A stretch of DNA of 63,123 bases, counting the filler, from Neolecta irregularis DAH-3 (Eukaryota): NCBI GenBank assembly GCA_001929475.1. It is 8 parts of 8 records of this genome, joined end to end, with 100 filler letters (N's around TTAATTAATTAA, not from the genome) between each part and the next. Parts side by side here need not be neighbours in the genome. Positions count along the whole stretch, not along the records: positions 20,721 to 24,202 come from LXFE01002642.1; 7 more parts are not named here. One strand, given 5' to 3'. The notes under the pieces are model-generated. The model was not told the origin of the DNA and made no database searches. It saw nothing but the letters and a program-made list of their open reading frames with translations. The translations under genes were made by a program, and so were the position numbers. Shown here piece after piece: positions 4,801-60,709 of the stretch (position 1 is its first letter; the number at the start of each line of letters is the position of its first letter).

Positions 4801-7800
4801 ATCTTTAAAGATTATCCCTGGATTTCTCAGCGTCATGCGATCATGTGGCTCTAGTATGCTCGAATTTTATTTCCAACAACTTGGGATTCTAATTTCTATT
4901 GTCAAGCAACATATTCGAAATTTCCTTGATGATATCTTCCAGTTGATACAGGAATTTTGGTTCACTGGAGGAAATTTGATCGCAACGATCCTCACTTTGG
5001 TAGAGTCGATTGCTCGAGCGCTGGAAGGAGAGTTCAAAATTTATCTTCCTAAATTATTACCAAATCTTCTCGCTGTTTTTGATAACGATCCATCGCCAGG
5101 CCGATTGGCAACGCAGAAAACCCTCCACGCATTAATCACTTTTGGCTCTAATATCGAAGAATATATGCATCTAGTCCTCCCTGCAGTAGTCAAAATGTTT
5201 GAAAAACTTGATGCTCCAGTAGCAATCCGAAGATGTGCCATCCAGACCGTCGCACAGTTATCTAGAAAAGTCAACTTTGCTGACCACGTATCGCGTATTG
5301 TACATCCTCTATCCCGAGTCCTTACTACCGGGAACCACGAACTTCGCATGGCTGCAATGGATACTCTTTGTGCTTTGGTGTTTCAGTTGGGAAATGACTA
5401 TGCAATATTCATTCCGATGATTGCAAAGGTTTGTGGCATTAAGCCAAAGATTTGACATTGTAGTGTCTGAATCAAAACAAAATCAGTCATCCCAACTACG
5501 AGCTATTGGTATCTAAGCTTCTTAAAGGTGAGTCATTGCCTCAAGACTTGACATCAGATGAAAGGTAGAGCATATGAGATCAGGTTGCTAATATGCAAGC
5601 TACATTGATAGTCGTATTGATGAGGCAAGCTCTGCAGAAGCAACTTCGAAAAAGCTTCCTGTAAATCAGCAACATCTCAAAACTGCTTGGGAAGCATCAC
5701 AGCGCTCGACGAAAGAGGATTGGCAAGAATGGTTCAGACGTCTTAGCGTGGAACTACTCAAGGAATCTCCGTCGCACGCTCTTCGAGCTTGTGCCACTCT
5801 TGCAGGATCCTACAATCAGCTTGCAAAAGAACTCTTCAACGCCGCATTCTATTCTTGTTGGGCTGAACTCTATGACCAATATCAAGATGAATTTGTCCGG
5901 GCTCTCGAGACTGCTTTGCATGCAACACAAATACCCCCCGAGATCCTCCAAATGTTGTTGAATCTTGCGGAATTTATGGAACATGACGATAAGGCATTGC
6001 CAATCGATATCCGAACATTGGGATCTTATGCTGCAAAATGTCATGCGTACGCTAAAGCACTGCATTATAAAGAGTTAGAATTCATAACTGAACCAACCAC
6101 AAGCACGATTGAGAATCTGATAGCTGTCAACAACCACCTGCAGCAATTCGATGCAGCTATTGGGACATTAACTTATGCCCAACAACATCACAACCTAGAA
6201 CTAAAGGAAAGCTGGTACGAACGATTACACAGATGGGAAGACGCTCTTGTCGCCTACGAAAGACGTGCACAAGAGGATCCAAGTAGCACTGATGCAGTTC
6301 TTGGGAAAATGCGATGTCTACATGCTCTTGGTGAATGGGACCTGCTTTCACAACTTGCTCAAGAGAAGTGGTTGCTGGCGACTCCGGATGTCAAGCGATC
6401 CATTGCACAACTTGCTGTCGCAGCAGCATGGGGTCTTGGAAATTGGGATAAGGTGGATGATTACATCTCGGTTATCAAACAAGACTCGCCCGATTGTGCT
6501 TTCTTCAGAGCGATTTTGGCTTTGCACCAAGAGGAGTTTGTTAGTGCCTCAAGTTATATCGCAACAGCGCGCAATTTACTGGATACAGAACTTACAGCAC
6601 TTGTAGGTGAAAGCTATAACAGAGCTTATGGGTATTCTACACTTATTAGAAAGGCTTTTTGTCTAATTCTCTTAGCGTTGCTGTTAGAATCCAGATGCTT
6701 GCGGAGTTGGACGAGATAATTGCTTACAAAAAGGCGAAAGATCAACCCGAGAAGAAAGCAATTATTCAATTAACCTGGTCGAAAAGGTATCTTTAGGTAT
6801 CATAATTATCGCTCAATTTTCAGGCTTGAAGGGATTCAACGCGACGTCGATACGTGGCAGAGGATGCTAAAGCTCCGATCCCTGGTTATATCACCAAAGG
6901 AAAACATGGATGCCTGGATCAAGTTTGCCAATCTCTGCAGGAAATCGGGGAGACTTGGTCTCACCGAGAAATCCCTCAATTCGTTATTGGATGAAGACGA
7001 ACAGATCGACGATTTCCACGTAAGTCAAAATAGAAACGTCTGTTTCTAATTGATAGACCATTACCAAAGCTCCATCCCAAGTCGTTTACGCACATCTGAA
7101 ATATCTATGGGCAACTGGCCGTCGTGACGAAGCTTTTTCGCATTTGTGCGACTTTACAGCCAAAATGTCACAAAATCTCGGTGTTAGCATAATCCAAGAC
7201 GCACCACCTTATGCCGCTCCCGCAATAATTTCTCAACGTCATCCCTCCTCTTCAGATCAAACTAGGCTTCTAGCGCGCTGTTATCTCAAACAAGGAGAAT
7301 GGCACATTGCATTAACAAGAAACTGGACGACTGGAGATCATGCTGAGGACATTTTGCGTTCCTACCGATTGGCTACTCATTTCGACGATAGTTGGTATAA
7401 GGCATGGCATGCTTGGGCTCTAGCGAACTACGAAGTGGTTGCTGAGCAGGATAAGAATGGCGATCTGGACTATAATGCTCATATTGTTCCATCTGTCAAT
7501 GGTAATGAATTACATCACATATTGGCTAACTTGAAGGCTTCTTTCGATCGATTGCACTAAGCGCTGGTAATGCTCTTCAAGACACACTTCGTCTTCTCAC
7601 CTTGTGGTTTGATCACGGATTCCATCCAGATGTTCTAGCGGCACTTAATCAAGGATTTTCTACCGTGAGCATTGATACATGGCTTGAAGTTATTCCCCAA
7701 GTATCTTGTCATGGTTTTCACATCGTATTGACAGAAAGCTGATAGCTCGGATTCATGCACAGCATGGAGTTGTGCGCAGGACAATTCACCAACTTTTATC

Positions 7801-9701
7801 GGAAGTTGGCAGGGCACATCCTCAAGCTTTAGTTTACCCGCTAACGGTGGCAACGAAATCACAAAGTAAAGCTCGCAGATCCGCCGCAATGGCTGTCGTC
7901 GATAAGTTGAGAGAGCATAGCGCCACCTTAGTTGATCAAGCATTACTCGTTAGCCATGAACTAATTCGCGTCGCGATTCTTTGGCATGAACAATGGCACG
8001 AGGGGCTAGAAGAAGCTTCTCGGCTATACTTCACCGATCATAACATCCAAGCAATGTTTGATATTTTGAAGCCTTTGCATGATATGCTTGACAAAGTAAG
8101 TCACGCTTCAGTTCTTTCTCTCATAGATCAGGGCCCGGAGACCCTTCGCGAGGTATCTTTTAATCAAACTTATGGACGTGATCTTCAAGAAGCTCGTGAC
8201 TGGTGCATACGATACGAACGAACCCTCGAACTCGCCGACCTTAACCAAGCATGGGATCTTTATTATCAAGTCTTTCGAAAAATCAGCAAACAACTTCCTA
8301 GTTTGACCACCCTTGAACTACAATTCGTCTCACAAAAACTACTTAAAGCTACAGACCTTGATCTTGCTATGCCAGGAACGTATGTAAGTGGAAAACCGAT
8401 CGTGAAAATAGCCGGCTTTGCACCCACATTCACTGTCATCACTTCGAAACAAAGGCCGCGAAAATTAACAATTAAAGGAAGCGACGGTAAAGAGTACCAA
8501 TATGCTCTCAAAGGCATTCATTCATATTTTGCATTTTCTCATTTTTCTAGGACACGAAGATATTCGTCAGGATGAGCGGGTCATGCAATTGTTTGGCCTA
8601 GTAAATACCTTATTGTCGAATGACTCGGAATGTTATAAGCGTCATTTAAGCATACAACAATATCCCGTCATCCCTCTCTCCCAGTATTCTGGGCTTCTGG
8701 GATGGGTCCCGGATAGCGATACGCTCCATGTTTTGATCAAGGATTACCGAGAAACTCGAAAGATTTTACTTAACATTGAGCACCGACTGATGCTTCAAAT
8801 GGCACCGGACTACGACAATTTAACATTATTGCAGAAAGTTGAAGTTTTCGAATACGCACTAGACAATACAACAGGACAAGACCTTTATCGAGTGCTTTGG
8901 CTCAAGAGTAGAAGCTCTGAGGCTTGGTTAGATCGTAGGTCCAATTATACTCGTTCTTTGGCAACAATGTCCATGGTTGGCTACATTCTTGGATTGGGTG
9001 ATAGACACCCGAGTAACTTGATGCTTGATCGCTACACTGGTAAGGTTATTCACATAGATTTTGGAGACTGCTTCGAGGTATCTAAGTTCATTCACATGGT
9101 CTAATGCCAAGGTTGCGATGAATCGTGAAAAATTTCCCGAAAAAATACCATTCCGCCTTACCAGAATGCTCACAAATGCTATGGAAATAAGTGGGATAGA
9201 GGGAAGTTTCCGAATAACTGCGGAGGCTGTTATGCGTGTTCTACGCGATAATAAAGAATCTCTTATGGCTGTGCTGGAAGCATTCGTTTATGATCCTTTA
9301 CTTAACTGGCGCTTAATTACGAATCCGAGTCCTATAGACGGGGATAGGAGGAGATCGGATGGTAGTTCTTTATGTGTGACAAGATCACTCATGAGTATAG
9401 ATCTGGTGGATGAACGCGGCCTTGGTCGGCGGAGTAGAGCTGACGAAAATGAACTGGTTCAAAGTGAGATCTCTTGTTCTCTTGATATCTTATATTGAAA
9501 GGGGAAGTTCATCAAATGCCTGAAATGCTCAATCAACGGGCAGTCATCGTAATGAAGCGTGTTGCAGATAAATTACAGGGTACGGACTTCAAAGACAACG
9601 AGGAGCTCGATGTTCCACAACAGGTGCAACGACTCATTCTGCAGGCCACGTCTTTAGAGAACCTTTGCCAATGTTATATTGGCTGGTGCAGTTTCTGGTG
9701 A
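1828..9701 (+). CDS. TOR2: Serine/threonine kinase TOR (HEAT, FAT, FRB, PI3K-like kinase, FATC); multi-exon with many short introns
   Basis: [22 protein letters not shown]; kinase [31 protein letters not shown] and [11 protein letters not shown]-terminal [19 protein letters not shown] pieces are joined by GT-AG introns. TOR1 versus TOR2 assignment is uncertain. Confidence 0.97.
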
Positions 9702-18865: not shown

Positions 18866-19847
18866 CTACCAATCTTGAATGAGAAATGTGAATTCTCGAT
18901 CACGTTCTTCTGGTGGTACCGGCGACCCATCTTCATACCAAAGATTTCTCTCAACAAAAGTAACGTGTCCATCATAGTCGACTAGGATTACAGTCTGTGT
19001 TCGAGTTCCGTAGAGCAGTGGTGAGGAGGCGACTTGGTCCGACTGCGAACCCAGATACTGGCTTGGAACGGAGAGGGGTGGGATGTAGATGCTGTGGCAT
19101 AGGTTGTCCAAACTGGGTGGTTTAGGAAAAGTATCGTGACCAAACTTAGCAGGACCACCAAGAAGCGTACCTTAGAATAGAAAAACATTCTTGCAAGAAT
19201 CTTTCATGTGTCCAATTTTCGGCTAAAGAACGAGAGACGATGTCATTTAAAAGAAGGGTTCCAGACTGAACTTTTGGCCACGGGTCTGAAAAGAGAGAGT
19301 TACTGAGACCAACCGAGTATTGCAAACAATGACCAGATGAATTGTCGACGGGATTAGACGGCGGAGACTTGAGGAGGCCAGACGATTGTGTCGAACAGAC
19401 GACTGTAGAAGCACGATTTGAAAAGCAGGCGAGTTTCTGTTTGCTAGCATCTCTTTTCAATTGCCCACAGAGCAAATTGAAACCGCCAATGTCTGCAGTA
19501 CTTGCTTGAACAGCTTGAACCCACTGTTCAGTATCATGGTCCGAGATGAGAAAGTCGGTGACCAAGCTGCCTCGACTAGTCTGAATGTCAGGATATAGTC
19601 GATATATGCATACATGAGAAAGAATGTGGGCGGATTCCCTGTAGTTTGTTAGCGACGCGAGCCTGCCGGAGCGGGATATTCCTAGCCAGGATCCGTGTTC
19701 TGGTCTTGCGAGGTCGGTGCTGGAGAGGATGGAGTCATTGTGCCAAAAAGAGGCCTGGGCAGTAGGACGGTTGAGGAACTCGTCTCTGTTGTTTAGCAGG
19801 ACGGAGTGGTAGCGGGGATTGTTGGTGGCGAGCAGGAGGATGCACAT
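18866..19847 (-). CDS. TANGO2/NRDE-family Ntn-hydrolase-like protein
   Basis: Start MCILL, NNRDEF motif, GSWLGISRSGRLASLTNYRE, SRGSLV, GGFNLLCG, GLSNS, WPKV and YGTRTQTVILVD. Confidence 0.92.
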
Positions 19848-20021
19848 GCCGATGCTTTGCAGACGAACCTGGTTATAGTGAATGTGGCGTGCATATAAAT
19901 ATATATGCAATATCATAGAGTACAGCACACGGCATGCCCAGTAGTATGCACTGTATATGCAATATATAAAACATGGTGGTATATTAACGGGCGGTGCCGA
20001 CTGCACTGCACTCCATCAGCA

Positions 20022-20620
20022 ATGCTGTCTCTGCTTGCGCGGCTTGTATAGTGCGCACCCCGCTGCCGCCGCGCTGCTGACTGCGGCAGCTCGTGCAGCG
20101 CATATGCGTACCCGGTGTTTGCGAGCTACAAGGCGCTCAAGGCGAACGATCCGACGCAGACGACGCCGTGGCTGATGTACTGGATTGTGCTTGCGTGCTT
20201 GCTGTTTGCGGAGAGCTTTACGCTGTGGCTGCTGCGATGGTATGTGTGCGGGCGGCGGGGCGCTGTGCTGATGCGAGGCTGCCGCTGTACTACGAGGCGC
20301 GGGCGGTGCTGCTGCTGTGGCTGGTGCTGCCGCAGACCCAGGTGCGTGGCTGGTGCTGCGCCACTCGGTGGCTGACGGCGGCAGGGCGCTGCAAAGATCT
20401 ACGTCGCCTACGTCCACCCGGCGCTGCTCCGCCACGAGCCCGACATCGACCGGCTGGTTAGCGCCGCCGCGGGCCATGCGCGCAGTGCAGGCATACACTA
20501 TGTGCACAAACTAGCCGCCGCCGTCAAGGCGTTGCTCTTCGGGCCGCGCACCGCCACCGCCACCGCCACCGTGCCGCGCACCGCCACGCCCGCAACCTTT
20601 GCGCAGTCGCTGTTTGCGCG
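20022..20620 (+). CDS. TB2/DP1/HVA22 (REEP/Yop1-like) protein, 3'-truncated by gap; GC-rich
   Basis: YAYPVFASYKALK, PWLMYWIV, LPLYYEAR, LWLVLPQTQG, IYVAYVHP. Three short GC-rich GT-AG introns. Confidence 0.88.
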
Positions 20621-20720
20621 NNNNNNNNNNNNNNNNNNNNNNNNNNNNNNNNNNNNNNNNNNNNTTAATTAATTAANNNNNNNNNNNNNNNNNNNNNNNN
20701 NNNNNNNNNNNNNNNNNNNN
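20621..20720. other. Artificial assembly linker (N-TTAATTAATTAA-N)
   Basis: 100-nt N block with a central six-frame stop cassette; the same design recurs seven times. Confidence 0.97.
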
Positions 20721-20891
20721 GTTAGATACTATTTTCCATTTACTCATATCCGTAACTTAGGCTAAGTATGACCCTTTGAAGTTCCCACAACTTAAGTTGG
20801 ACAATAAATCCTAGTCTTCTTTGTACTTGAGTGTTTTTTGACTTTCAGTATCTCTATTAGTTCTGCTTAGCGCATCTACTCTCTTTTTACA
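20721..20891 (+). mobile_element. 3' part of an LTR, cut by the gap
   Basis: aataaatcctagtcttc motif similar to 607-627; ends in ttaca. Confidence 0.35.
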
Positions 20892-21899
20892 TTGCCTATC
20901 GTTCCCAATGCATTTCCAAGCACCATACTCTAGCTTGCTCAATCATTGCCAATGCTCTATATCATCGATTCAAGTGAATGTGTCAAAACAAATCTGCTAA
21001 TATTTCTACTTATGGAGGTCTTTTAATTAACCCTATTGCTCATTATGGAAAGGCCTTTAATTAACCCAAGGCCAACAACAACACAGTACATTAGAATAGC
21101 ATAATAGCATAAATAGAAATAAAGATGTAAATTTGACACCAATTTGAAGCAAAGTACGCGCTATGCAATTTATTCCTCTGTTCCTTTTATCCGACCCGCC
21201 CAACTGCCCAACCGTTCGCCGGAGCAATCTCCGACGGGCGTTCGGCTTAGTAATCTGCCCAACCACCCGCCGGGTACCACACTCCTGACAATGTGTTCCT
21301 CATTATCGCAAATCAACTCTACAGTCCCTATCCAGGTAATATGGCTTTTCATCACCTCTTTTCTCAGACCACATTGGTCAGGATGTATGTTTAAATGCTT
21401 GACCCTTATTCTTTGGAAGCAGTTGATATATCCAACGCTCTATTGCATAAACATTCTATGACCCTTTTTCCTTTATCCAAACTATACAAATACTGCTTCG
21501 CCTTCTGAATTTCATCAACCCTCTCATTTTCAAAAATTCTTATTAACCTGCATCTGAATTGCACAGTTCTGTGAGCAAGTACAGCAAACCAACGAATCTC
21601 AAAACTCCAACTTCATGTCAAGCGACACCACCAATGACCATACTTTAGTAGAATGCGAATAATTACATCATAAAAGCATATTTAGACAACTTGTATTAAA
21701 CATCTATAATACAGATATGGGTACATTTCAAACAAAGAACACAATTTCTATTCAGTATACACGTACTATCCACTCCCTATCTGTGCAGACCAAAGAAAAC
21801 GAAAACGAAAAAAACAAAAAACAAACTTACAGACCATATCCATACCCAACAAGCCACAAAAAACAACAAAAGAAAAGAAAAGATATACCGTGTTTTGGA

Positions 21900-24202
21900 C
21901 TAATTTAGACACCAAGGATGAGATAATACTTGTTTCATTGTAGGCCGTTTAGCCACGTCTCGTTCCAACATCCATGAAATAAGTCCAATACCATCAAATT
22001 CCAAATCAAACGGGATCCTCAAATTCGCATCCATGATTTCATCAATCTGAAATCAGCGGGCTGAATTACCAAGGGAGTTTGTACATTGTAAAAAGGGTTT
22101 TCGCGGTATACGACTGTATACGCTAAAATACCCAACGCCCAAACATCTTGTTCTTTACCCGAGTACTATTGACAAATTAAAAAAAAACTAGGTTGGAGGG
22201 GTAAGAGGTACTTTCATGCCCTTTAATACTTCAGGAGCAGCATAATCCAATGTCCCGTGAAATGTATCGAAACCAGCGACACCAACACCACAAGGAGACC
22301 AAGCCGCGCTACCAAAATCAATCAACACGGCATTATTCTCGAAATCCAAAACTACATTTTCATCTTTAATATCTCGATGGACGATTCCATGATCATGTAA
22401 ATGTCCCACAGCCTTGGCAATTTGTCTGAATAATTTTCTCGATTCAGATTGAGAGATACAGCTGTTATGTTCAATGTAATCGAATAAATCTAGTCCTGGG
22501 CCAATAGGTAATGTCTCCAAATAATAATACGACGAATCTTCGAAAAAGTCGACTGTATTAAATTAGTTGGTGAACATTTGGAGGAAAGGGAGGGTACGGA
22601 GTTGCATTATGTGTGGATGGGGATATCGACTCATGTAGTCGAGGATATGTATTTCAAGAGGGATGGTGCCGAGGGTGCGATCACGGTGCCATGTATCAAC
22701 TAATATCCTCGATTTAGTCACATATTTCATCACGGCAACCTAACAATTAGCCCAAACTGTACAACTTTAAAAAGGTGCATACTTTTCCAGTGTGTTTGTT
22801 GCGGACTTTTTTGACGCGGCCGTAGGCTCCTTCGCCCATATTTTCAAGGATTTCGAAATCTTCAATGTTGCGTTTAGGATTTTGAGAGGGTTGGGATTCT
22901 AGAAGCTGGTCTATGGGGGGCGGTACCGGGGCAGGTGAGAGGTCTCGACTAAAAGTGACCCAAAGGGCATAATAATACTCTTCGGGTTTGTGTTTAGTAT
23001 TCAGCTCGTCGGGTTCGTGCTTATTCAACTCGATTGCTTCGTGTTTACCGTTCACTCTGTGTTTACCGTTCAATTCCTCTTTAGCATCCAATTCATCTAC
23101 TGGACCAATTTCAAAACAAGGTTTAGAAGGAACAGGTTTTTCGACTAACCGCATTTGAATATCGATCGGAATCTCTCCTGAATCGTAATGCCGGGCATAA
23201 ATTTTATTGCTACTGGAAATTGCTTTTGCGGCACGGGTAAAAGTGAGTTCTGAGATGACTTTACCCTTTTCAAAAGAGGAGTCAAGCGTCATTATGTATT
23301 CCAATAGTTGAGTGAATTTTGGGATGACCGCTGTTATTTTTGTAGAGTGTGGAGGGGGATGGAAGCCGAGCAAGAATTTTGCAAAGACGGGGTTGAGGGA
23401 GAGGATCGAGAGGTCCGCCGAGTCGATGAGGATGATGCCTGAGAGGTAGGGGAGATGGGTGATTGTGAGGGAGCGGGGGCAGGAGTGGGTGTTTACGGGG
23501 ATACGGCCTGCGGGGGTGGCCAGGGTGTAGTAGCCGTCCACGCCCGTCCAGGAAGGGATGACGTCGCTGATGGAAATGTTGTTGATGTGGGGGTAGGTAG
23601 TGATGGCTGCAACGTCACCGGTGGCGGAGAGGAGGCGGTGCGGGAGGGCGGGGTCGAGCTGGGCGTGGAGGACCTTGAGGTCGACCTGTTCCATGACCCA
23701 GATGAGCCATTCGTCGCGGCGTCTGAGCCAGAGGCTTGCGTGGGAGCGGGCGCCCGCGCGGGAGACGATGGAGAAGACGTCGCCGCAGAGGATGACTTCT
23801 GAGGGGACTTGCTTTATTTTGGCGAGGATGGTGGCTCTGGAGTCGTGGACGAACAGGTCGAGGATGGGGAGGATGCGGACGTGGGAGTGGGTGAGGGCAA
23901 AGAGGAGGGAGGCGACGTCGTTGAAGCTGAGGATTGTGTACGGATAGAAGGGCCGTGTGGAAAAGACGGCCTGGTGGGCGATGCAGCGGGCGGCGAGGTG
24001 GCAGGGGGGGAGGACAGACTGGTGGATGGAGCGGGCGGTGTCGTTTGTGCCTTGGGTGGTTGTGCGGCTGGGTGACTGGGAGGCGGCAGTCGTAGTGCTA
24101 GCGGTGGTCCTAGTACTAGGGGTGGTTGTAGTCGTAGTGCTAGCGGTGGTGGCAGTCGTAGTAGTCGCCGTCTCCGTCGCACTCTCAGCAGCAGCAGTCG
24201 CA
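21900..24202 (-). CDS. PAS-domain serine/threonine kinase (Psk1/Ppk6-like), 5'-truncated by gap
   Basis: PAS-like segments followed by a kinase domain: MGEGAYGRV, KSRILVDTWHRDRTLGTIPLEIHIL, HRDIKDENV, IDFGSA, FHGTLDYAAPE, QDVWALG and KRPTMKQVLSHPW. Confidence 0.88.
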
Positions 24203-24302
24203 NNNNNNNNNNNNNNNNNNNNNNNNNNNNNNNNNNNNNNNNNNNNTTAATTAATTAANNNNNNNNNNNNNNNNNNNNNNNNNNNNNNNNNNNNNNNNNN
24301 NN
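24203..24302. other. Artificial assembly linker
   Basis: N block with a TTAATTAATTAA core. Confidence 0.97.
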
Positions 24303-26418: not shown

Positions 26419-26518
26419 NNNNNNNNNNNNNNNNNNNNNNNNNNNNNNNNNNNNNNNNNNNNTTAATTAATTAANNNNNNNNNNNNNNNNNNNNNNNNNN
26501 NNNNNNNNNNNNNNNNNN
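26419..26518. other. Artificial assembly linker
   Basis: N block with a TTAATTAATTAA core. Confidence 0.97.
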
Positions 26519-26679
26519 GGTGGTGGTGGTGGTGGCGCCGCCACAAGGGGTCGGTGGGCGGTCGGCGGGCATGGGGCGGCAGAGGAAGCCGCGAGGGCGG
26601 GAGGCGCGGGGTTATATGAAAATTTGCGGGTGGTTCGGGACGCCGCAGCCGAAAGTTGACGCCACCATTGCCCAACCAC

Positions 26680-30928: not shown

Positions 30929-31028
30929 NNNNNNNNNNNNNNNNNNNNNNNNNNNNNNNNNNNNNNNNNNNNTTAATTAATTAANNNNNNNNNNNNNNNN
31001 NNNNNNNNNNNNNNNNNNNNNNNNNNNN
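30929..31028. other. Artificial assembly linker
   Basis: N block with a TTAATTAATTAA core, followed by an (AT)n run. Confidence 0.97.
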
Positions 31029-32160
31029 ATATATATATATATATGTTCAAAAGGAATAGTGGAATAGAGGATTACAAAAATATAAAGAATTGCATTATTC
31101 TCATCAACATCCCTCAAATCAGTTTGTCTATTGGATTTCTCTCTCTGCAGAGCAATAAAGAAAATGCCTTCATAAAATATGAAATGGTCGTAATTCTTGT
31201 TTTTTTATTTTTATATTTATGTTGGACATGGATATAGGTGTGTCTAATTTACGGCCTTTCCAGATGCCCTTTAACTTGAAAAAAGTTTGACTTTTGTCTT
31301 TCACCTTTCTCCATAACTAGTCGAATTCACTATATCAGGTTCGTATATTTCACTTCTCCCAATCAATGCATGATGATTGTTCTTTCCCGAATGTCTAGGA
31401 CTTGCGGACCAACTAATAAACTGGAATTCTTCGTTTCTGATCTTTGCATGGATATCATTTATCCTTTATTTCTTTGACCAGAACAAGACTAATTGTATAC
31501 AGGTATGTCAATCTTTTACTTCTCATATATGATGATCAAAACTTCCACATTGTCACAGGCGAATCCTGAGCCACGATAACATGCACTACCAGCTGACTTC
31601 TCTATCGCTTTCCTATACTCTACAGCCAAATACTGACAATCTCAAGGTATGCAGTCGCTTCGACGTCCATTTGGCTTAAGATGGTGTGTTCATTTTCATT
31701 TATCTTTTGCAAACACAGTATTTGATGATAAACCCTTTTCAGTTCTGCTTCTGAACCAAAATCTTCATGAAGTTAACAAAAATACCAAAACAATAACTGA
31801 CACTTGTTCCATTTTTTTATTTACTTTCTCCATTGCGACGGATGCTAATTAGCAGGTACGTTGCAGAAACCTTTTCTTTAAAGGCATCGTAATGATGACA
31901 CCCTCAAGTTGAATCCATTCTACGACCATGTAGATCCCGACGAGTGCTCCATTCCTCTACTCTTTAACCTACCTCCGTCGGTTTTCGTCCGGTAACCGGG
32001 TGGGGGTTCAGGATGGAGTGTTGGGTGAACTGGGTATACTTTGCTTGTCTGATCTATTTTCATTTTTCATATGTTCCGCCGTTGATACAGATTATGCTTA
32101 CAAAGAGTGTTAGGTATTGGTCAGGTATATAAAACCCGTTTCCCTCTTTGAACTTTCAGT

Positions 32161-44628: not shown

Positions 44629-44866
44629 GAATATGTAATGGCAGCTAGATGAAGTTTGCGCTTTGTATACCCATTGAGAGTGTTCTATCAGTGGGGTATT
44701 CGGAACACTGCTCGCCCATTATCACCTGCCCACCTCCCCCGTTACTGCTCACCTCCTCGCCCTTTACCACTCCGCCCTCTCACCTGCTATCGCCTGCCGT
44801 CCTCGCCTGCCCTCCGTGCCTGCTATCACCCCGCCCAACTCGCCCGTTACTGCTCCCCTTCCTCGT

Positions 44867-45178
44867 TGTGAGCGTTGGGTGTCCTGCAGCTCAGGAGGCT
44901 TCCCTGAGAATACAAGATCGCGATTCGGGAAAGAAAGGCAACTTCATATATTATTGCTCCGGTTTGGCCTGTCTTGCTAATCAAGCCAGGGCCTACTTAT
45001 AGAAGAACTGGCACATGCGCTGTTGTCTCCCTGCCTACCTCTCGGGTGGCAAGGCTTGTGATCGTCCTGACTTGGCTCGGTGGTACTGTCTGCCGATCGG
45101 CGGCGCCTTCTGTGGCTCCTGAACCGTTGGGTGTCATGGTAGCTTGCGATGTAGGGCGCCGGTACTGTCGTCCCTACA
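44867..45178 (-). mobile_element. 3' LTR of a chromovirus-type Ty3/gypsy element
   Basis: On the minus strand a polypurine tract (agggaggg) directly precedes TGTAGG, and the LTR ends ...gctcaCA. Related to the solo LTR at 15990. Confidence 0.8.
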
Positions 45179-45720
45179 CCCTCCCTGTCTCAAAATTCTC
45201 ATGTTCGCTGGCTCCCCCTGCGTTACCTGCTCCTGTAACTCATAGAATCGTTGAATGGCTTCCTGAGCATTTGTCATATGCTCTGCTGGCTCCCAAGATG
45301 TTTCGTCCCCAGGGAAACCTCTCCACTTAACCAGATAATAATCTTGTTCTTCCCTCTGTTCGTGATCACGAATTTCTTCCACTTCTTGTTCTGGGAATCC
45401 ATCCTTGAAATGTATTGGGGGCAGGTAATATGGTGTGCAGTTTGGAGAGAGTTGATAATTATTTCCAGGGTATTTCTTGAGTAACAATATTTGGAACTGG
45501 TTGAAATTCCTCATGCCTTCTGGCAGCTTGAGCTTGTAGTTCTTGCTGCTGCCAATTTGGGTGATTGGGAATGGCCCAATCTGTCTAGGCATAAATTTCT
45601 TTGTTCCATCTTTTGGTATGAGATTCTTTGTTGATAGGAGCACCAAGTCTCCCAACTTGAATTTTTGGCTCTCTCATCTTCATTTGTTAGCTTGTAATGA
45701 ATGGTTAATTTTACCCCTAA
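45179..45720 (-). mobile_element. Integrase C-terminus (GPF/Y motif) and chromodomain of a Ty3/gypsy chromovirus remnant
   Basis: GDLVLLSTKNL, KFMPRQIGPFPI, YKLKLP, then the chromodomain EVEEIRDH...YLVKWRGFPGDETSWEPAEHM. Confidence 0.9.
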
Positions 45721-55467: not shown

Positions 55468-55567
55468 NNNNNNNNNNNNNNNNNNNNNNNNNNNNNNNNN
55501 NNNNNNNNNNNTTAATTAATTAANNNNNNNNNNNNNNNNNNNNNNNNNNNNNNNNNNNNNNNNNNNN
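55468..55567. other. Artificial assembly linker
   Basis: N block with a TTAATTAATTAA core. Confidence 0.97.
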
Positions 55568-55835
55568 TATATCACCAATTGCCAATACACAATATGATAT
55601 GAGAAAATTTTTATTGCATGATATGATATAATACAGACTTTTTGATATTGTGATAATATTTTGACATTTTCATATCATATTGCCATAATATAATGTGGAA
55701 TTTTTGATATTGTGATAATATTTTGACCTTTAAATATATATTGTAATGATATGATATGTACTTTTTGATATCACGATGATATTTTCACCTTTTTATATTG
55801 GGAATATCGTATCATTTATATTATTGCCAACACTG
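55568..55835 (-). mobile_element. AT-rich non-autonomous hAT-like element end with subterminal repeats
   Basis: Repeated ttttgatattgtgataatattttgac units, ending in attgccaacactg (reverse complement of CAGTGTTGGCAAT). Confidence 0.6.
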
Positions 55836-56007
55836 TGCATAGCATACTTACAATGATCAATCCATATAATTGGTCCAATCAATCTACCCTTATAGATTGG
55901 ATTGATAGTAGATATTTTTGGGATTGATAATCCAATTTATTGTTAAATATGCTGCTTGTTTTAACCTAAAATTAAGGGAAAATCTTATAACAAATATAGA
56001 AGAAAGT

Positions 56008-57688
56008 TTAAATTTTGCAAAACTTCTCTAGTACTACCATCAATCCACCAATTAAATGCATAGATCCACAAACAAAAATATCCTTAAACCCAGTTATTTG
56101 ATTAATTTCAAGAACTGCTTCCTCAATTGTAGATTTAATATGCACAAAACCCTTGCCACTTATTTTGGCCCATGTACAAGCAAGTTTGTGTTGCACTTGT
56201 AGAGACTCAACCTTGGTTTGGTCAACATTCATTGAACTTAAATCTAGACAGTCACAATGTTGTAGAAGAAAGAGAAAACCATCTTCATATCCTGTTGCTT
56301 TCCAAGTTATATTGGTACAAAAGATGACATGGTCAAACTGGACTTCAGAATCACAATGGCGATGTAAAATTTCCAGAAGGGTGGATGCATTTCGAACCGG
56401 TTGGTTGAATAGAAGAATTCTAGTTTTGCTTTGTGAACCTCTTGAGCATTAAAGCACAGATTAGGAGTAACAGGACGCACGATGAGGCTGTGCAAAACCA
56501 AGAAGCCGCTACTTCTATGCTTTCATGAGTATGAGCACCATCCAGATACCATGTTTCGGCGCCGCGGCGAATAATTTCACAACGGCCAGGGCATGAGGCT
56601 GATGCTACACCTGCAATGACTTCGGCCTGCTTGTGAAAAGGTAGATGATCATTGAGAAAACCTAATGTTTTGAAATGCTCTTTGACAAGAGCAATTGCAA
56701 GTGAAGCATTCTGCGGCTGAACGTGTCCAGAAAGACCGAGCTTCATATCCTGAGCGAGAGTAGGCTCGATTATGATGAGTGGTACCTTTAACATTGTTAA
56801 TCACGAAAACCCTAGGGGGAATAATTTACATGTTTCTCCTGAGCCCTTGCATGAATAACCTGCATAGCATCTGCAGGTTGTGGAACGGTTAGTGCTGGTC
56901 GGCCTGATTTCATGATTCCTGTTTTATGCCATGCAATTTCCTTTATACTGTTCCCCAGAATGGCAGTATGATCAAGCCCAAGATTGGTAATACCAATGCA
57001 TGTGGGTTTCTCAATCGCGTTCGTGCAATCATATTCACCTCCTATTCCAACTTCCAAAATCACTGTATCAACCTAATATGACTCAGCTCAGAACATTACA
57101 AAGATTCCAAATACTTTGAGTTCAGCAAAGACGTGCCATGCAAGAAGCGTAAGAAAACGGAAGTACCTCGGTTTTGGCAGCAGGCTGTCACTCTCGAACT
57201 GCTTTATTCGATCCCATACTTGAAAAAAGTAAAATGAAAATTCTTCTTCGCCGATCGGTTCGTTGTTGATTTGAATGCGTTCTCGCACTACTTTCAGGTG
57301 CGGCGAAGTAAAGAGACCGATTTTTGAGGGAAAGCCTCGACTGATGCGATATTTATTTAGTATCGATGAAATAAAAGCACATGTTGAGCCTTTGCCTTTA
57401 GTTCCTGACACGTGAATAACGTTCAACTTGTCCAGCTTAGAAGGCTCATAGCCTAGTCGCATAAGCCAGCCACGCATTTCTTGCATCGATGTCGCATTCA
57501 GAGCCGCCCCATCTTTGATCATTTGTTCGACGGCATCAGCATTACTCTGCAAAGAATTCAGAGCATCGATAGCGTTCTACTAGTAAGTAAACTTCACTCT
57601 GATGATCTACTTTGTATGACCTAGGACTTTCTAGTATTTTCATAGTGTGAAAGAATCTCGAGAACAAAATCGGCCGCAGGCAGTGCAT
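56008..57688 (-). CDS. MET7: Folylpolyglutamate synthase
   Basis: LNSLQSN, LNVIHVSGTKGKGSTCAF, GLFTSPHL..VRERIQIN, YFRFLTLLA, ILEVGIGGEYDCTN, WYLDGAHT and VCGSMHLIGG. Confidence 0.96.
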
Positions 57689-58190
57689 CAATAAGCAATT
57701 TTTTGCAAGGCGTTGTGGTATCAAAAGACCTGCGTCAGCTGATTATACGGTATGGTGTGGGAAGGCCGCTACGCGAGCGGTAGAAGTGTGTGAGGATGAT
57801 GGCGGGACAGCACAGGGGACCAGGGGGCAGTGCCGCGGGTGGAGAGGGCAGCTGGGATTGGAGATATCGGGTGGGAGCAGAGCCCCCGGTGCGGTGTGAG
57901 AACCTTGAATTGGCGCTCGTGATTCTCAACCCTCAGCCAAAACCTTCTCCTGCCCCAGCCCAAATCCTTTATTTTCCTACCCTTGCACAGCGGACGCATC
58001 GTCTGTTTCGGTTATCTGGCTATAACACCTCCACCCCGTATCTAGCTTATTCTCGTTTCTTCTACCGCGCGCCCCCGCCTACGTCGCTGTACTCTGCCTC
58101 GCTGGTTTCCCCGTCACCCCTGCCCTCTGTCGCACTCCACCCCCCGCCTCCTCCCGCGCCTTGCTCGTCTCTGCCCACGACGCCGGCCAT

Positions 58191-58290
58191 NNNNNNNNNN
58201 NNNNNNNNNNNNNNNNNNNNNNNNNNNNNNNNNNTTAATTAATTAANNNNNNNNNNNNNNNNNNNNNNNNNNNNNNNNNNNNNNNNNNNN
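58191..58290. other. Artificial assembly linker
   Basis: N block with a TTAATTAATTAA core. Confidence 0.97.
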
Positions 58291-58356
58291 GAACAGGACG
58301 GGAACAGGACGGGAACAGGACGGGAACAGGACGGGAACAGGACGGGAACAGGACGG
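58291..58356. repeat. Minisatellite (GAACAGGACGG)n, 6 copies visible, running into the gap
   Basis: Perfect 11-nt tandem repeat that decays to the right. Confidence 0.9.
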
Positions 58357-58583: not shown

Positions 58584-59923
58584 ATGTCGATGCCGCCCAA
58601 GAAGCGCAAAGGGGATAATGAGACAGCAAAGGCAGCCAAGGTACGGCAATCATTTTCTGGGTGTTTACATTCAGAAAGCTAGTATTGTTGCGCGGTGGCT
58701 CGATCTGACATACAGAGGGGATAGCGGAGGACGATGACGGGTTTGTATTTACGCGTTCGAGGAATATGCAGGCGAGGAACCAGCAGGCGAGGAATCAGCA
58801 GGCGTCGTCGAGTGTCGCTCAATCTATGTGCCAGACAGCGGCAACGCGACACGGACGTACACCCGTTACTTCAAAGATATTTACATTTAGCGAAGGGGCC
58901 AAGGTATGTACTTTTGAGTGTAGAGTTGATTGCAGGTGAAAGCGGGGGTGTTTGATTCAGTGGTGCCGCTGGCGGTGGGCGAGATTTGCAGGAACAAGGA
59001 AGTGCGGAAACAGGGGCGAAGCAGTCTTGGGATGCGGGGGAAGCGGGCGAGTTCTATGGGCAATGGGTTTGTTGGTAAGGGAGAATGTGGACGAGGCTGA
59101 CGAGCAGCGCTGCCGCACCGTGATATCGGGGAGCAAGATTTTTTCAAGCACATATCTGTGGAGCTGCCTGGGCCGCTGCGGATGAAGCAGCTGCTTGCGT
59201 GGTGCGGGCGGCGGGCGCTTGACGAGATCAAGGGCGGGACGAGCGGGCACGCGGTGTCTATGGGTGAGGGAGCTGAGAGGACGCGGGTAACGGAGGCAGC
59301 GCGGGCTATTGGGGAAGAGATGCTGCGGGATCTTGTGGACAACAAGATTGGGACGAGCTGGTACAACCGGCGGGTATGGGGCGTGCCAGCGGGGCTGACG
59401 GCAGGCAGAGGCGGGCGAGCGGCCACGGCCGAGGAAGGCGCACCCGCAGAACGTGCGGTATTTGCAGCAGCTTGGGGAGTGCCGGGCGCAGCTGACGAGG
59501 TATTGCGTGAAAGGCGGGCGGGCTGACGGCAGGCTGCAGGCGGAGCACGGGGCATGGATGCGGCTGTTGGACGGGAAAGAGACGGACGAGACGGACGAGA
59601 CGGACAAGACAGACGGCGAGACGGACGGGATAACAGATCAGACAGATCGCAAAGAGACAGATCCGACAGATGGGGGCAGTAGCGGATCTGCAGAGCGGCG
59701 GGACTATCTGGCACAGGCGGGGCGCAGAGTGGAAACGCAGGTGGACCGGCTGCACGCGGCGCTGCACGCGGTCGACAACCTTGCGCGGGTGTCTGCGGCG
59801 TACGCCAGCGCGGCGGTGGAGCAGGCGGCGGCGGCGGCAGAGGCGCGCGGCACGAGAGCGCGGGCGGCGGCGGGGACGCTGGGCGTGGATGTCTGGGACG
59901 TGCTCAAGGGCATTGCGCGGTAG
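58584..59923 (+). CDS. DSN1: Kinetochore Mis12-complex subunit Dsn1/Mis13; GC-rich
   Basis: MPPKKRK start, EDDDGFVFTR, RGKRASS, DFFKHISVELPGPLRMKQLLAWCGRRAL, ARAIGEEMLRDL...SWYNR, VETQVDRLHAALH and DVLKGIAR*. Confidence 0.85.
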
Positions 59924-59930
59924 TCTGGAT

Positions 59931-60047
59931 GATAGCCGTCTGTCTGTAGTCTCTGGATGTCGTCTGTCTGTATCTCTTGAGATAGCCGTCTGTCTGTATC
60001 TCTTGAGATAGCCGTCTGTCTGTATCTCTTGAGATAGCCGTCTGTCT
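59931..60047. repeat. 26-nt tandem repeat (GATAGCCGTCTGTCTGTATCTCTTGA), about 4.5 copies
   Basis: Directly visible just after the DSN1 stop codon. Confidence 0.85.
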
Positions 60048-60090: not shown

Positions 60091-60190
60091 NNNNNNNNNN
60101 NNNNNNNNNNNNNNNNNNNNNNNNNNNNNNNNNNTTAATTAATTAANNNNNNNNNNNNNNNNNNNNNNNNNNNNNNNNNNNNNNNNNNNN
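60091..60190. other. Artificial assembly linker
   Basis: N block with a TTAATTAATTAA core. Confidence 0.97.
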
Positions 60191-60294: not shown

Positions 60295-60709
60295 CATACT
60301 GATAATGGTACTCGCCATTGATCCATTTCAATTTTCAGAATCTACAGACGAAAGCTCGGACCCGGTGCAGGATAATTTGCCATCACCCACTCCAACTCCC
60401 AGGCCCGCTCCAGTGCCCTCACCCGCTCCAGCACCATTGCCCGCTCCAGCTCCATCTCCCACTCCAGCACCCTCCCTGCTCCAGCGCCCTTGCCAGCTCC
60501 AACTCTGTTGCCCGCTCCAACTGCCTAGTCTGCTGCAGCGCCCTCGCCAGTTTCAGGACCCCCGCCTGCTGAGACTCCCTCTCTGACTGCAACTCCCTCG
60601 CCCATGACCGCTGCAGCTCCCTCGCCTGTTGCAGCGCCCTTGACTGCCACAACACCCTCGCCTGCTGCAACGCCCTATCCCGCTGCAGCGCCCTCTCCAG
60701 TTGCAATTC

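Follow-up and report, generated by a model that had tools for sequence, protein, structure and literature searches.

A compositional step within a PAS-kinase-like gene and strand-asymmetric GC-rich islands in a 63-kb window of the Neolecta irregularis genome

The PAS-kinase-like gene

The window analyzed here is a 63-kb stretch of DNA from Neolecta irregularis, in which eight contigs are joined by seven artificial linkers (N44 + TTAATTAATTAA + N44), and all statistics given below are from this one window. The assembly was made from field-collected fruiting bodies and is fragmented (Neolecta genome paper, PMC5309816). The features of the window are collected in Table 1.

The PAS-kinase-like gene lies on the minus strand, and no stop codon interrupts its reading frame between the contig end (24201) and the end of exon 1. 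The spliced translation is intact. A 2971-nt contig from run X1 skips all four introns, which have GT..AG ends. The C-terminal part of the protein contains a Ser/Thr kinase domain (Pkinase, PF00069, E=1.3e-23 on the exon at 22188-22520). A protein search for relatives gave only five matches, with 25-28% identity. The kinase domains of the five homologues are 43-51% identical to that of the PAS-kinase-like gene (tblastn). The gene is collinear with ascomycete PAS kinases in the alignment. Exon 1 itself aligns collinearly with the homologues (E 1e-33), of which all five contain PF25421, with PF13426/PF00989 present in P0005; exon 1, either whole or divided into its two halves, gave no Pfam match to a PAS family at E<=0.1. 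A Thr/Ala repeat takes up the first ~45 codons (24201-24065), and run X2 contains a variant of this region with a 21-nt insertion behind 24175.

Table 1. Coordinates of genes, islands and other features, counted along the whole window
Feature	Position	Strand	Remarks
PAS-kinase-like gene	21900..24201	-	CDS 5'-truncated by contig end
PAS-kinase-like exons	24201-22781, 22737-22598, 22552-22212, 22165-22085, 22046-21900	-	stop codon 21902-21900
18/24-nt tandem repeat, Thr/Ala-rich N-terminal part	24089..24163	.	TRF rows
GC-rich island arm in PAS-kinase-like gene	23386..24202	-	sense strand C-rich, + strand G-rich; reaches contig end
Change-point support interval	23346..23391	-	best estimate 23385; within second conserved PAS-like block
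Remaining exon 1, ordinary AT-type composition	22783..23385	-	GC3 0.41
Artificial contig linker	24203..24302	.	separates distinct contigs; one of 7
TB2/DP1/HVA22 island	19976..20620	+	exons 20091-20239, 20278-20341, 20385-20620+; reaches contig end
Island near start of contig 3	24383..24762	.	+ strand C-rich; no assigned gene; ORFs without Pfam match
Island at start of contig 4	26519..27018	.	G-rich to C-rich flip ~26619-26678
240-nt island next to Ty3/gypsy-like fragment	44669..44908	.	+ strand C-rich; among the islands of one scan, the sole one well inside a contig
Island in front of folC/FPGS gene (-)	57708..58187	.	G-rich to C-rich flip 57927-57988; reaches contig end
MIS13/DSN1 island	58691..59970	+	sense strand G-rich; PF08202 E=1.5e-22
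MIS13/DSN1 exons	58724-58903, 58936-59074, 59108-59373, 59405-59499, 59533-59923	+	model from 58724 onward
Island near start of contig 8	60311..60730	.	+ strand C-rich; mostly 18/36-nt tandem repeat; ORFs without Pfam match

A compositional step in exon 1

The initial annotation described a GC-rich 5' coding part with mostly C-ending codons that turns AT-rich within one exon. GC3 computed in sliding windows of 30 codons along the gene, a check that the annotation had proposed, and a likelihood scan agree with this description. Between ~24100 and 23450 GC3 is 0.80-0.97, C3 is 0.67-0.93 and T3 is 0-0.17, and from ~23390 to the end of exon 1 GC3 is 0.2-0.57. The GC-rich part was said to extend to ~24200; in the Thr/Ala repeat of the first ~45 codons GC3 is only 0.5-0.6. 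Furthermore, the change had been called a gradient, but the scan characterizes it as a step that is at most 45 nt wide. The scan compared two segments over third positions, with a 2-log support interval and 2000 permutations. It placed a single change point after codon 272, at window position 23385 (support 23391-23346), across which S3 falls from 0.86 to 0.41 and C3 from 0.76 to 0.28. The log-likelihood ratio is 50, compared to a maximum of 11.4 in the permutations.

The GC-rich arm has a GC content of 0.61-0.68 and a plus-strand GC skew of +0.28 to +0.61. The four-fold sites of 24051-23401 (n=129) are C.79, G.09, A.08 and T.05, whereas those of the AT part of exon 1 (n=84) are C.36, G.11, A.23 and T.31. 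The background, taken from coding sequence elsewhere in the window (nine segments, n=1270), is A.30, C.21, G.15 and T.33.

Continuity of the gene across the step

The change was originally assigned to a single continuous exon of a single host gene, and the open frame and the contigs that bridge the step confirm this assignment. The 2971-nt contig from run X1 covers 22781-24196 with no mismatches and therefore spans 23385. Contig 10 of run X2 corresponds to 21851-23422 and passes the step by 37 nt. Two stretches, 23423-23486 and 23888-23918, are covered by none of the listed contigs of run X2; their summed depth is higher (896 and 1011), which points to other overlapping contigs in that run. 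The AT part has a word depth of 375, and the GC part has values of 364 and 417. Runs X1 and X2 are from one study, possibly including the source sample, and are thus not fully independent evidence. The conserved block LTITHLPYLSGIILIDSADLSILSLNPVFAKFLLGF/HPPPHSTKITAVIPKFTQLLEYI spans the step and is aligned to the homologues without a break. When the two halves of exon 1 are compared with one set of five homologues, the identities are 0.29-0.35 for one half and 0.29-0.40 for the other. At 23385, therefore, the depth does not shift, a bridge is present and the relatives of the two halves do not differ.

These results agree with the earlier opinion that horizontal transfer or contamination can hardly explain the change, and they do not support a chimeric join. 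An assembly chimera, a contaminant or an introgression mosaic from a GC-rich relative is, in our view, highly improbable, because spliced and DNA contigs bridge the step at equal word depth, the frame is intact through one conserved block and neither half is closer than the other to the shared set of homologues. This is so in spite of the position of the gene, which abuts a contig end, and of the fragmented assembly, in which 7 of 14 contig ends, measured per contig, lie within 200 nt of a GC-rich island. The GC step is a genuine feature of the Neolecta irregularis genome.

GC-rich islands in the window

The 5' part of the PAS-kinase-like gene lies in one of about nine GC-rich islands, which recur every few kb in the window. 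The islands are 0.2-1.2 kb long, roughly 1 kb, cover introns and exons alike, and ignore both exon/intron borders and gene direction. GC reaches or exceeds 60% in 30 of 617 windows of 100 nt, compared to 1.7 expected. The GC content of four-fold sites (GC4) is.79-.93 in the islands and.36 in the background, and the protein composition within the islands is shifted. The islands do not match one another in sequence, and internal repeats were found in only two of them. Of 29 TRF rows, 13 fall inside the islands, which make up 6.2% of the bases. The CpG observed/expected ratio is 0.91 inside and 0.90 outside the islands, and thus gives no hint of methylation in either. A RIP-type AT-isochore genome was considered and rejected, since the AT-type sequence bears intact TOR, P450, kinase domain and TANGO2; the TpA observed/expected ratio is.74 outside and.76 inside the islands.

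Four of ten open reading frames tested from the islands had a Pfam match, namely HVA22 (PF03134, E=5.2e-11), MIS13, a weak Bestrophin-like match and a weak Methyltransf_8 match. The last of these belongs to the Rrp8-like gene of contig 4 (E=1.1e-5, under Pfam's cut-off). The folC/FPGS gene was identified by TIGR01499 (E=1.3e-34 on 57091-57576, minus strand). In MIS13 GC3 climbs toward the 3' end and falls just past the stop codon, resulting in a graded change over ~1.2 kb. In a protein search with TANGO2 the top match is the protein of N. irregularis itself, and all others have at most 40% identity. A search for further relatives in metagenomes matched 93 pattern stretches, of which none was confirmed as a locus.

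Five of the six introns inside islands have a GC content of.58-.74 (G.45-.53), and the sixth has.38. The two HVA22 introns have.71 and.74, and introns i3-i5 of MIS13 have.58-.74. The four introns of the PAS-kinase-like gene are outside islands and have.35-.47. The initial annotation had proposed a localized mutational or fixation bias, and the GC-rich introns of the other islands support a local, non-selective cause of this sort. Fungi often prefer codons that end in C, and an mRNA with a C-rich 5' part would form little structure, which might suggest that codon usage, mRNA structure or the composition of the protein has been under selection in these gene parts. Such selection is exceedingly improbable, because introns and untranslated spacers share the bias, NNC and NNG codons dominate in adjacent genes and the step lies within a domain. 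The intron data and the opposite-base data thus already contradict it.

Strand asymmetry

In every arm of an island almost all sites that are free to vary have shifted toward G on one DNA strand and accordingly toward C on the other. One base dominates the four-fold sites of the islands, but it is not the same base everywhere. In the PAS-kinase-like gene this base is C, whereas MIS13 has G.70 and C.09 (n=169), inverting the background order of C above G. In HVA22 the dominant base changes within the gene: exons a and b have G.88 and C.05 (n=40), and exon c has C.56 and G.33 (n=54), as the island is G-rich up to ~20400 and C-rich from there on. Where one base takes 70-88% of the four-fold sites, the other S base occupies 5-9%. 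Codon positions 1 and 2 move in the same direction as position 3. The mean absolute skew is 0.33 in windows with GC >= 0.6 (n=33) and 0.15-0.18 elsewhere. PAS kinase, TANGO2 and the Rrp8-like gene each have a C-rich sense strand in their 5' region, as does folC in its 5' flank. MIS13 is more G-rich toward its 3' end. The strand asymmetry is independent of the gene strand. Taken at face value, the opposite preferences at four-fold sites would exclude codon selection, a GC-rich donor genome and GC-biased gene conversion (gBGC) alone. In the case of a donor, preferences for C and for G cannot come from a single genome, and the island genes keep the intron style of this genome (31-43 nt, with a CTGAC/CTGAT-type motif near the 3' AG, which is GCTGAC/GCTGAT in 5 of 6).

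A symmetric AT to GC component is present besides the strand asymmetry, because both classes of two-fold sites exceed the background. C/(C+T) is.92 in the PAS kinase,.66 in MIS13 and.38 in the background, and G/(G+A) is.46,.82 and.35, respectively. This component and the GC rise, which is found in silent sites and non-coding DNA alike, are what gBGC at a recombination hotspot would produce, since heteroduplex repair favors G:C. The kilobase scale and the GC peaks at stable yeast hotspots (PMC2997560) fit as well. However, gBGC is blind to exchanges between C and G and is strand-symmetric. G should therefore be about equal to C, and it is not at the four-fold sites of PAS kinase, MIS13 and exons a and b of HVA22. 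The initial annotation suggested gBGC, and its reading holds for the local rise of GC at silent sites but not for the shift between C and G, nor for a dominant base that varies between islands and within HVA22. As the only cause gBGC is quite improbable. Whether or not it contributes, the asymmetry requires a process that is specific to one strand.

A scan for changes in the polarity of the asymmetry found two flips. Both run from G-rich to C-rich, across short spacers that resemble divergent promoters. The flip in contig 4 lies in the spacer between a minus-strand ATG (~26571) and the ATG of the Rrp8-like gene (plus strand, 26681), and the other precedes folC. A third flip would result if contigs 2 and 3 were adjacent, but tblastn with the N-termini of homologues gave a best E of 6.6, and the (CAG)n-like ends of the two contigs are too short to judge. 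The notion that the G-rich strand always points toward the contig end was dropped, since it holds for only 4 of 7 ends adjacent to islands.

Two other strand-specific processes should be considered at this point. Strand-asymmetric mutagenesis or repair linked to transcription (R-loops, lesions of the non-transcribed strand, transcription-coupled repair) could spread from bidirectional promoters and would require no meiotic breaks. The location of the flips and the shared polarity of several 5' regions, where the sense strand is C-rich, are in accord with such a process. The polarity, however, is opposite to the pattern usually reported: past the start sites it is the non-template strand that is G-rich, and bypass of abasic sites likewise enriches the non-transcribed strand in G. 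MIS13 and exons a and b of HVA22 have a G-rich sense strand and would need unseen antisense RNAs, although in MIS13 the pattern could be explained by antisense transcription that begins at a promoter downstream of the gene. Furthermore, most genes in the window, including TOR, P450, PRTase and ORF855, have no island. We regard transcription as an unlikely cause. An asymmetry linked to replication at fixed origins or termini is very improbable. The template of the lagging strand is single-stranded and yeast origins lie within intergenic nucleosome-free spacers, but a lagging-template model predicts a change from C-rich to G-rich at origins, opposite to both flips, and the skews of replication extend over many kb rather than 0.2-1.2 kb.

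Break hotspots as a possible origin of the islands

The reading that we favor, with a likelihood somewhat short of even, is that the islands are evolutionarily fixed break hotspots, at which gBGC is combined with strand-specific repair mutagenesis. Meiotic double-strand breaks would be centered on intergenic, promoter-like spacers whose positions have been fixed over evolution. Gene conversion would supply the symmetric AT to GC part. Resection would leave damaged single-stranded 3' tails, and these would be filled in by error-prone synthesis opposite the lesions. If C is inserted opposite lesions, as REV1 does, any base would be changed to G on the tail strand. As a result, the strand running 5' to 3' toward the break would become G-rich on both sides. 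The 5' part of the PAS-kinase-like gene, at least 0.8 kb, lies in one arm of a ~1-kb island. What the sequence shows is the islands with their regional extent, asymmetry and flips; breaks, resection, translesion synthesis and gBGC are inferred. The broader proposition, that the Neolecta genome is dotted with bipartite islands recording REV1-type break repair and gBGC at long-stable promoter-centered hotspots, is a tentative one and, on present evidence, rather doubtful.

The closest parallel is found in human hotspot flanks. Hinch et al. (2023, PMC7615360) describe C>N and A>N changes that are asymmetric between the strands and affect the one that is single-stranded, which is the forward strand to the left of the break and the reverse strand to the right. 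The peaks of C>G, A>G and C>A lie 700-800 bp away from the center, and C>G is a REV1 signature. Over time the human polarity predicts a flip from G-rich to C-rich. Loss of C and gain of G on the resected 3' tail strand, mirrored around the break, the scale of 0.7-2 kb and the instability of tandem repeats are common to both systems (PMC7615360). In Neolecta the strand with its 3' end at the flip gains G and loses C in both scanned flips and in HVA22, a small sample. The human signal consists of de novo and rare mutations, since PRDM9 hotspots are short-lived, whereas the Neolecta islands would be a fixed footprint.

Several observations do not agree well with break hotspots. Variable resection should give a graded decay, over ~1-2 kb, and a graded edge is seen only in MIS13. 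The PAS kinase has a plateau followed by a step of at most 45 nt, which the break model leaves without explanation. The HVA22 flip is inside the gene instead of in a spacer. Clean flips number only two, for which the same direction has a chance probability of 0.25-0.5. The presumed centers of the islands of PAS kinase, MIS13 and contigs 3 and 8 fall in assembly gaps. Moreover, transcripts that leave a bidirectional promoter are copied from the very strand that would form the resected 3' tail, so that geometry alone does not separate breaks from transcription.

Comparison with other GC-rich regions

In birds and dogs, which lack PRDM9, GC peaks occur at stable hotspots and have been attributed to gBGC. 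A fungus that lacks PRDM9 should likewise keep its hotspots in place. The Neolecta islands share with the GC3 peaks at stable hotspots of yeast (PMC2997560, PMC11703093) a silent-site rise on the kilobase scale and a promoter-like site. Such peaks are modest, however, and strand asymmetry is not reported for them, whereas the Neolecta islands have a GC4 of 0.79-0.93, a single base at 70-88% of four-fold sites and a step edge.

The CpG-island promoters of mammals that form R-loops are GC-skewed, the non-template strand being G-rich downstream of the start. They resemble the islands in having a GC-rich, skewed region of a few hundred bp at promoters. The sense strand of the Neolecta 5' regions is C-rich, however, and CpG observed/expected is 0.9 both in and out of the islands.

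The runaway GC islands of gerbils, whose GC-rich 'dark' DNA is hard to sequence (PMC7403616, PMC7574485), are similar in their extreme local GC content, non-adaptive bias, effect on proteins and failure to assemble. Those islands are large, contain many genes and are ascribed to gBGC, whereas the Neolecta islands are ~1 kb long and strand-skewed. The 5' to 3' GC3 gradient of grass genes (PMC4316631, PMC3762193) also changes within genes and has a GC-rich 5' end, as in the PAS kinase. Unlike grass genes, MIS13 rises toward its 3' end, HVA22 is GC-rich throughout, most genes of the window have no such change and the PAS-kinase change is a step.

Significance

Recombination hotspots with a local GC peak are familiar, whereas islands in which a single base at 70-88% of four-fold sites switches between neighboring genes, and even within one, are not known to have been described. 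A search of the literature on Neolecta and fungi found no report of islands with a single four-fold base, and the term "GC-rich" is absent from the main text of the Neolecta genome paper (PMC5309816). The islands may account for an N50 of only 16 kb in a 199-fold assembly of a 14.5-Mb genome (PMC5309816). Studies of codon usage, dN/dS or phylogeny that use Neolecta genes will be biased by the islands, because the protein composition shifts inside them.

If the break-repair reading is true, gBGC alone would not be the whole story of hotspot-associated GC, and the islands would be the first case in which strand-asymmetric mutagenesis of the human type has accumulated as a permanent genomic landscape. 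The positions of hotspots, their centers and the polarity and reach of resection would then be readable from sequence alone, through the GC skew in one genome of an unculturable fungus. The process would be strong enough to remodel the composition of proteins and to break short-read assemblies.

Contigs of the window and the PAS-kinase-like gene

Seven 100-nt linkers (N44 + TTAATTAATTAA + N44) join the eight contigs, so the window is a chain of separate contigs and not a single molecule. Features that seem to cross a linker are not real neighbors as far as is known, and contig order and orientation have no known meaning. According to the genome paper, DNA and RNA were taken from field-collected fruiting bodies, and the assembly has 14.5 Mb, 199-fold coverage, an N50 of 16 kb and 44% GC (PMC5309816). 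The first contig has a TANGO2 open reading frame that shares 96% identity with an N. irregularis DAH-3 protein; the next best match has 40% identity.

The minus-strand frame of the PAS-kinase-like gene is open downward from the contig end at 24201, which cuts off the 5' end of the gene. X1 and X2 are two sequencing runs of one study, and the source sample may be among them. A 2971-nt X1 contig skips four stretches of 38 - 46 nt with GT..AG ends, and the translation after splicing is intact. Because this contig lacks all four introns, we infer that X1 is transcript-derived. A protein kinase domain (PF00069, E=1.3e-23) lies in the 3' exons. A Pfam search with exon 1 gave no match at E<=0.1, and this exon aligns collinearly with kinases of 1017 - 1483 residues from ascomycete and mucoralean fungi. 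Five matches with E<=0.001 were found among 8000 candidate proteins (25 - 28% identity), one of which contains Pfam PAS families. Given the kinase domain, the collinear exon 1 and the PAS families of that match, the name 'PAS-kinase-like' is reasonable.

Two local variations were noticed on this contig. In X2 the Thr/Ala-rich 5' repeat of the gene is longer by a 21-nt insertion at 24175, a length polymorphism at the contig end. Downstream of the gene, at 21069-21170, a contig in both runs skips exactly 100 nt (ends GG..AT), and several contigs stop at 21073/21074 and 21106/21107, their loose ends being unrelated. This points to a dispersed repeat or a small insertion/deletion.

Features of the window and base use at four-fold degenerate sites of the sense strand
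Feature	Position	Strand	Sites (n)	Remarks
Artificial linkers	20621-20720, 24203-24302, 26419-26518, 30929-31028, 55468-55567, 58191-58290, 60091-60190
PAS-kinase-like gene, contig	20721-24202			3,482 nt
PAS-kinase-like gene, exons	24201-22781, 22737-22598, 22552-22212, 22165-22085, 22046-21900	minus		X1 contig joints
PAS-kinase island core, four-fold sites		minus	129	C.79, G.09, A.08, T.05
MIS13/DSN1 (PF08202) island, four-fold sites		plus	169	G.70, C.09
TB2/DP1/HVA22 (PF03134) island, four-fold sites, exons a+b		plus	40	G.88, C.05
TB2/DP1/HVA22 island, four-fold sites, last exon		plus	54	C.56, G.33
Nine ordinary coding segments, four-fold sites			1270	A.30, C.21, G.15, T.33
Skew flip	26619-26678			~110-nt spacer; minus-strand ATG followed by (ACC)n-like codons versus plus-strand ATG of Rrp8-like gene
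Skew flip	57927-57988			about 300-400 nt upstream of folC/FPGS gene (minus)

The compositional step in exon 1

The initial annotation described a steep GC gradient inside this gene. The shift is real, but it is a single step. The GC fraction at third positions (30-codon windows) is 0.80 - 0.97 from about 24100 to 23450, and 0.2 - 0.57 from about 23390 on. A change-point scan of third positions places one break after codon 272, at 23385 (support 23391-23346), with a logLR of 50 versus a maximum of 11.4 in 2000 permutations. Across this point the G+C fraction of third positions falls from 0.86 to 0.41 and that of C from 0.76 to 0.28. A convenient background for codon statistics is the large TOR kinase gene (4802-8572, plus strand; mTOR_dom, FAT and FRB domains), which has ordinary AT-type composition.

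The step is not a chimera, and contamination had rightly been considered unlikely. The X1 contig covers 22781-24196 with 0 mismatches and extends about 210 nt further, and X2 contig 10 spans 21851-23422, thus passing the step by 37 nt. X2 word depth is similar on both flanks of the step (AT 375; GC 364 and 417). The step lies inside a block conserved in all homologs, and, measured against the same five proteins, neither half is the more distant one (identity 0.29 - 0.35 and 0.29 - 0.40). A chimera or introgression is therefore very improbable.

GC-rich islands

The GC-rich part of exon 1 is one of about nine such patches, or islands, of 0.2 - 1.2 kb each, which occupy 6.2% of the bases. They are made up of the 100-nt windows with GC >= 60%, of which there are 30 among 617 non-overlapping ones, compared to 1.7 expected from a normal background. 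Comparison of the islands with each other found no sequence likeness; 13 of 29 tandem-repeat rows lie inside them. Five of the six introns within the HVA22 and MIS13 islands have a GC content of.58 -.74 and a G content of.45 -.53 (the sixth has GC.38), compared to GC.35 -.47 in the four PAS-kinase introns outside the island. The island introns keep the tiny size usual in this genome (31 - 43 nt), with GCTGAC or GCTGAT close to the 3' AG in five of six. From the spread of the islands and their GC-rich introns it follows that the bias is regional and acts on DNA rather than on codons.

All ten introns examined (22047-22780, 20240-20384, 58904-59532) are 31 - 46 nt long; in nine, a CTRAY-like branch motif precedes the AG by a few bases, and a spliced contig proves four of the ten. 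Most of the C-rich island of contig 8 consists of an 18/36-nt tandem repeat (60379-60706, up to 16 copies, 68 - 73% matches); this repeat is Pro/Ala/Ser-rich in one frame, and a family search with it found none. The only island of the GC-window scan well inside a contig, 44669-44908, adjoins a minus-strand open reading frame (45137-45673) in which a chromodomain (PF00385, E=3.8e-15) occurs together with a Tf2-type SH3 domain (PF24626); this frame is a fragment of a Ty3/gypsy-like retroelement integrase.

Seven of the 14 contig ends have an island within 200 nt on their own contig (background fraction 0.10, binomial P 1.8e-4). Very AT-rich DNA (20 - 32% GC) is found at three ends (55568-55900, 31029-31300 and 20721-20900), and thus the assembly breaks at both compositional extremes. 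The first of these contains a 61-62-nt tandem repeat of 2.8 copies (55623-55798). Contig 7 starts with six copies of an 11-nt unit (58291-58356, 100% matches) and ends with a 26-nt minisatellite of 4.6 copies (59931-60047), directly past the MIS13 stop codon.

Strand asymmetry

The key result of the island analysis is strand asymmetry. The mean |skew| is 0.33 in GC-rich windows versus 0.15 - 0.18 elsewhere, and the favored base differs between genes (table). At two-fold sites, C/(C+T) rises from.38 in the background to.66 in the MIS13 island and.92 in the PAS-kinase island; G/(G+A) rises from.35 to.82 and.46, respectively. The AT-to-GC change is thus raised in both directions, with one direction dominating within every island. 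The first two codon positions move the same way as the third, with a G-C skew at positions 1/2 of -0.07/-0.35 (PAS-kinase island) and +0.29/+0.05 (MIS13), compared to +0.17/-0.24 in the background. Relative to its homologs, the PAS-kinase island is shifted toward amino acids with C-containing codons (-0.16 versus +0.03).

Because neighboring genes favor opposite endings, neither translational selection nor a single GC-rich donor genome can be the source; selection of any kind, which would also have to account for the introns, is hardly credible. The localized mutational or fixation bias proposed earlier for the 5' part of the gene is thus retained and extended to a region, introns included. 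The proposed cause, GC-biased gene conversion (gBGC), fares less well. It does not act on C<->G, so it cannot raise one S base at the other's expense, and gBGC alone is a doubtful explanation.

Geometry of the skew flips and possible origin

A scan for adjoining arms (island parts of one skew) of opposite sign found two flips in the window, each of which passes from G-rich to C-rich along one strand; it found none in the reverse direction. The match of the Rrp8-like gene beside one of them is below the Pfam cut-off. At their 5' ends, the PAS kinase, TANGO2 (19621-19900) and Rrp8-like coding sequences have a C-rich sense strand, as does the 5' flank of folC. In MIS13, G-richness climbs steadily toward the 3' end (GC3 from about.45 -.7 to.9), and the island ends within about 50 nt past the stop codon, beside the minisatellite and the contig end. 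In every case the G-rich strand is the one running 5'->3' toward the presumed center, which for four islands falls in an assembly gap.

Transcription from bidirectional promoters could give the same geometry, since its template strand is the strand that would survive resection of a break. However, the usual polarity of transcription-linked asymmetry is the reverse of that observed, and most genes of the window have no island; this origin is unlikely. An asymmetry linked to replication is improbable.

We tentatively favor, at somewhat less than even probability, the reading that the islands are footprints of break hotspots, left by strand-specific repair plus gBGC. At a double-strand break the 5' strands would be resected, leaving single-stranded the strand that ends 3' at the break. 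The resection tract in budding yeast is about 0.8 kb, and the arms, 0.16 to 1.2 kb or more long, are within the range of such tracts. According to Hinch et al. 2023 (PMC7615360), changes in the flanks of human meiotic hotspots are strand-asymmetric, with C>N and A>N on the single-stranded strand; C>G, a REV1 signature, peaks off-center at 700 - 800 bp, as do A>G and C>A. Such pressure on either side of a hotspot fixed over evolutionary time would enrich the tail strand in G and deplete it of C, and a G-rich to C-rich flip would be read along either single strand; gBGC would supply the symmetric AT-to-GC component. In organisms that lack PRDM9, promoter-type hotspots are regarded as fixed in position. 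Against this reading, the PAS-kinase edge is a step and not a decay, the HVA22 flip lies within the gene, the sample has only two clean flips, four centers lie in assembly gaps, and the contigs have no order or orientation of known meaning.

Titles and abstracts on Neolecta and GC content describe no such islands, nothing comparable was found in those on fungal GC islands, skew and hotspots, and 'GC-rich' does not occur in the main text of the genome paper (PMC5309816). The nearest known systems are gBGC peaks at stable hotspots, the GC islands of gerbils and the mutation asymmetry of human hotspots.
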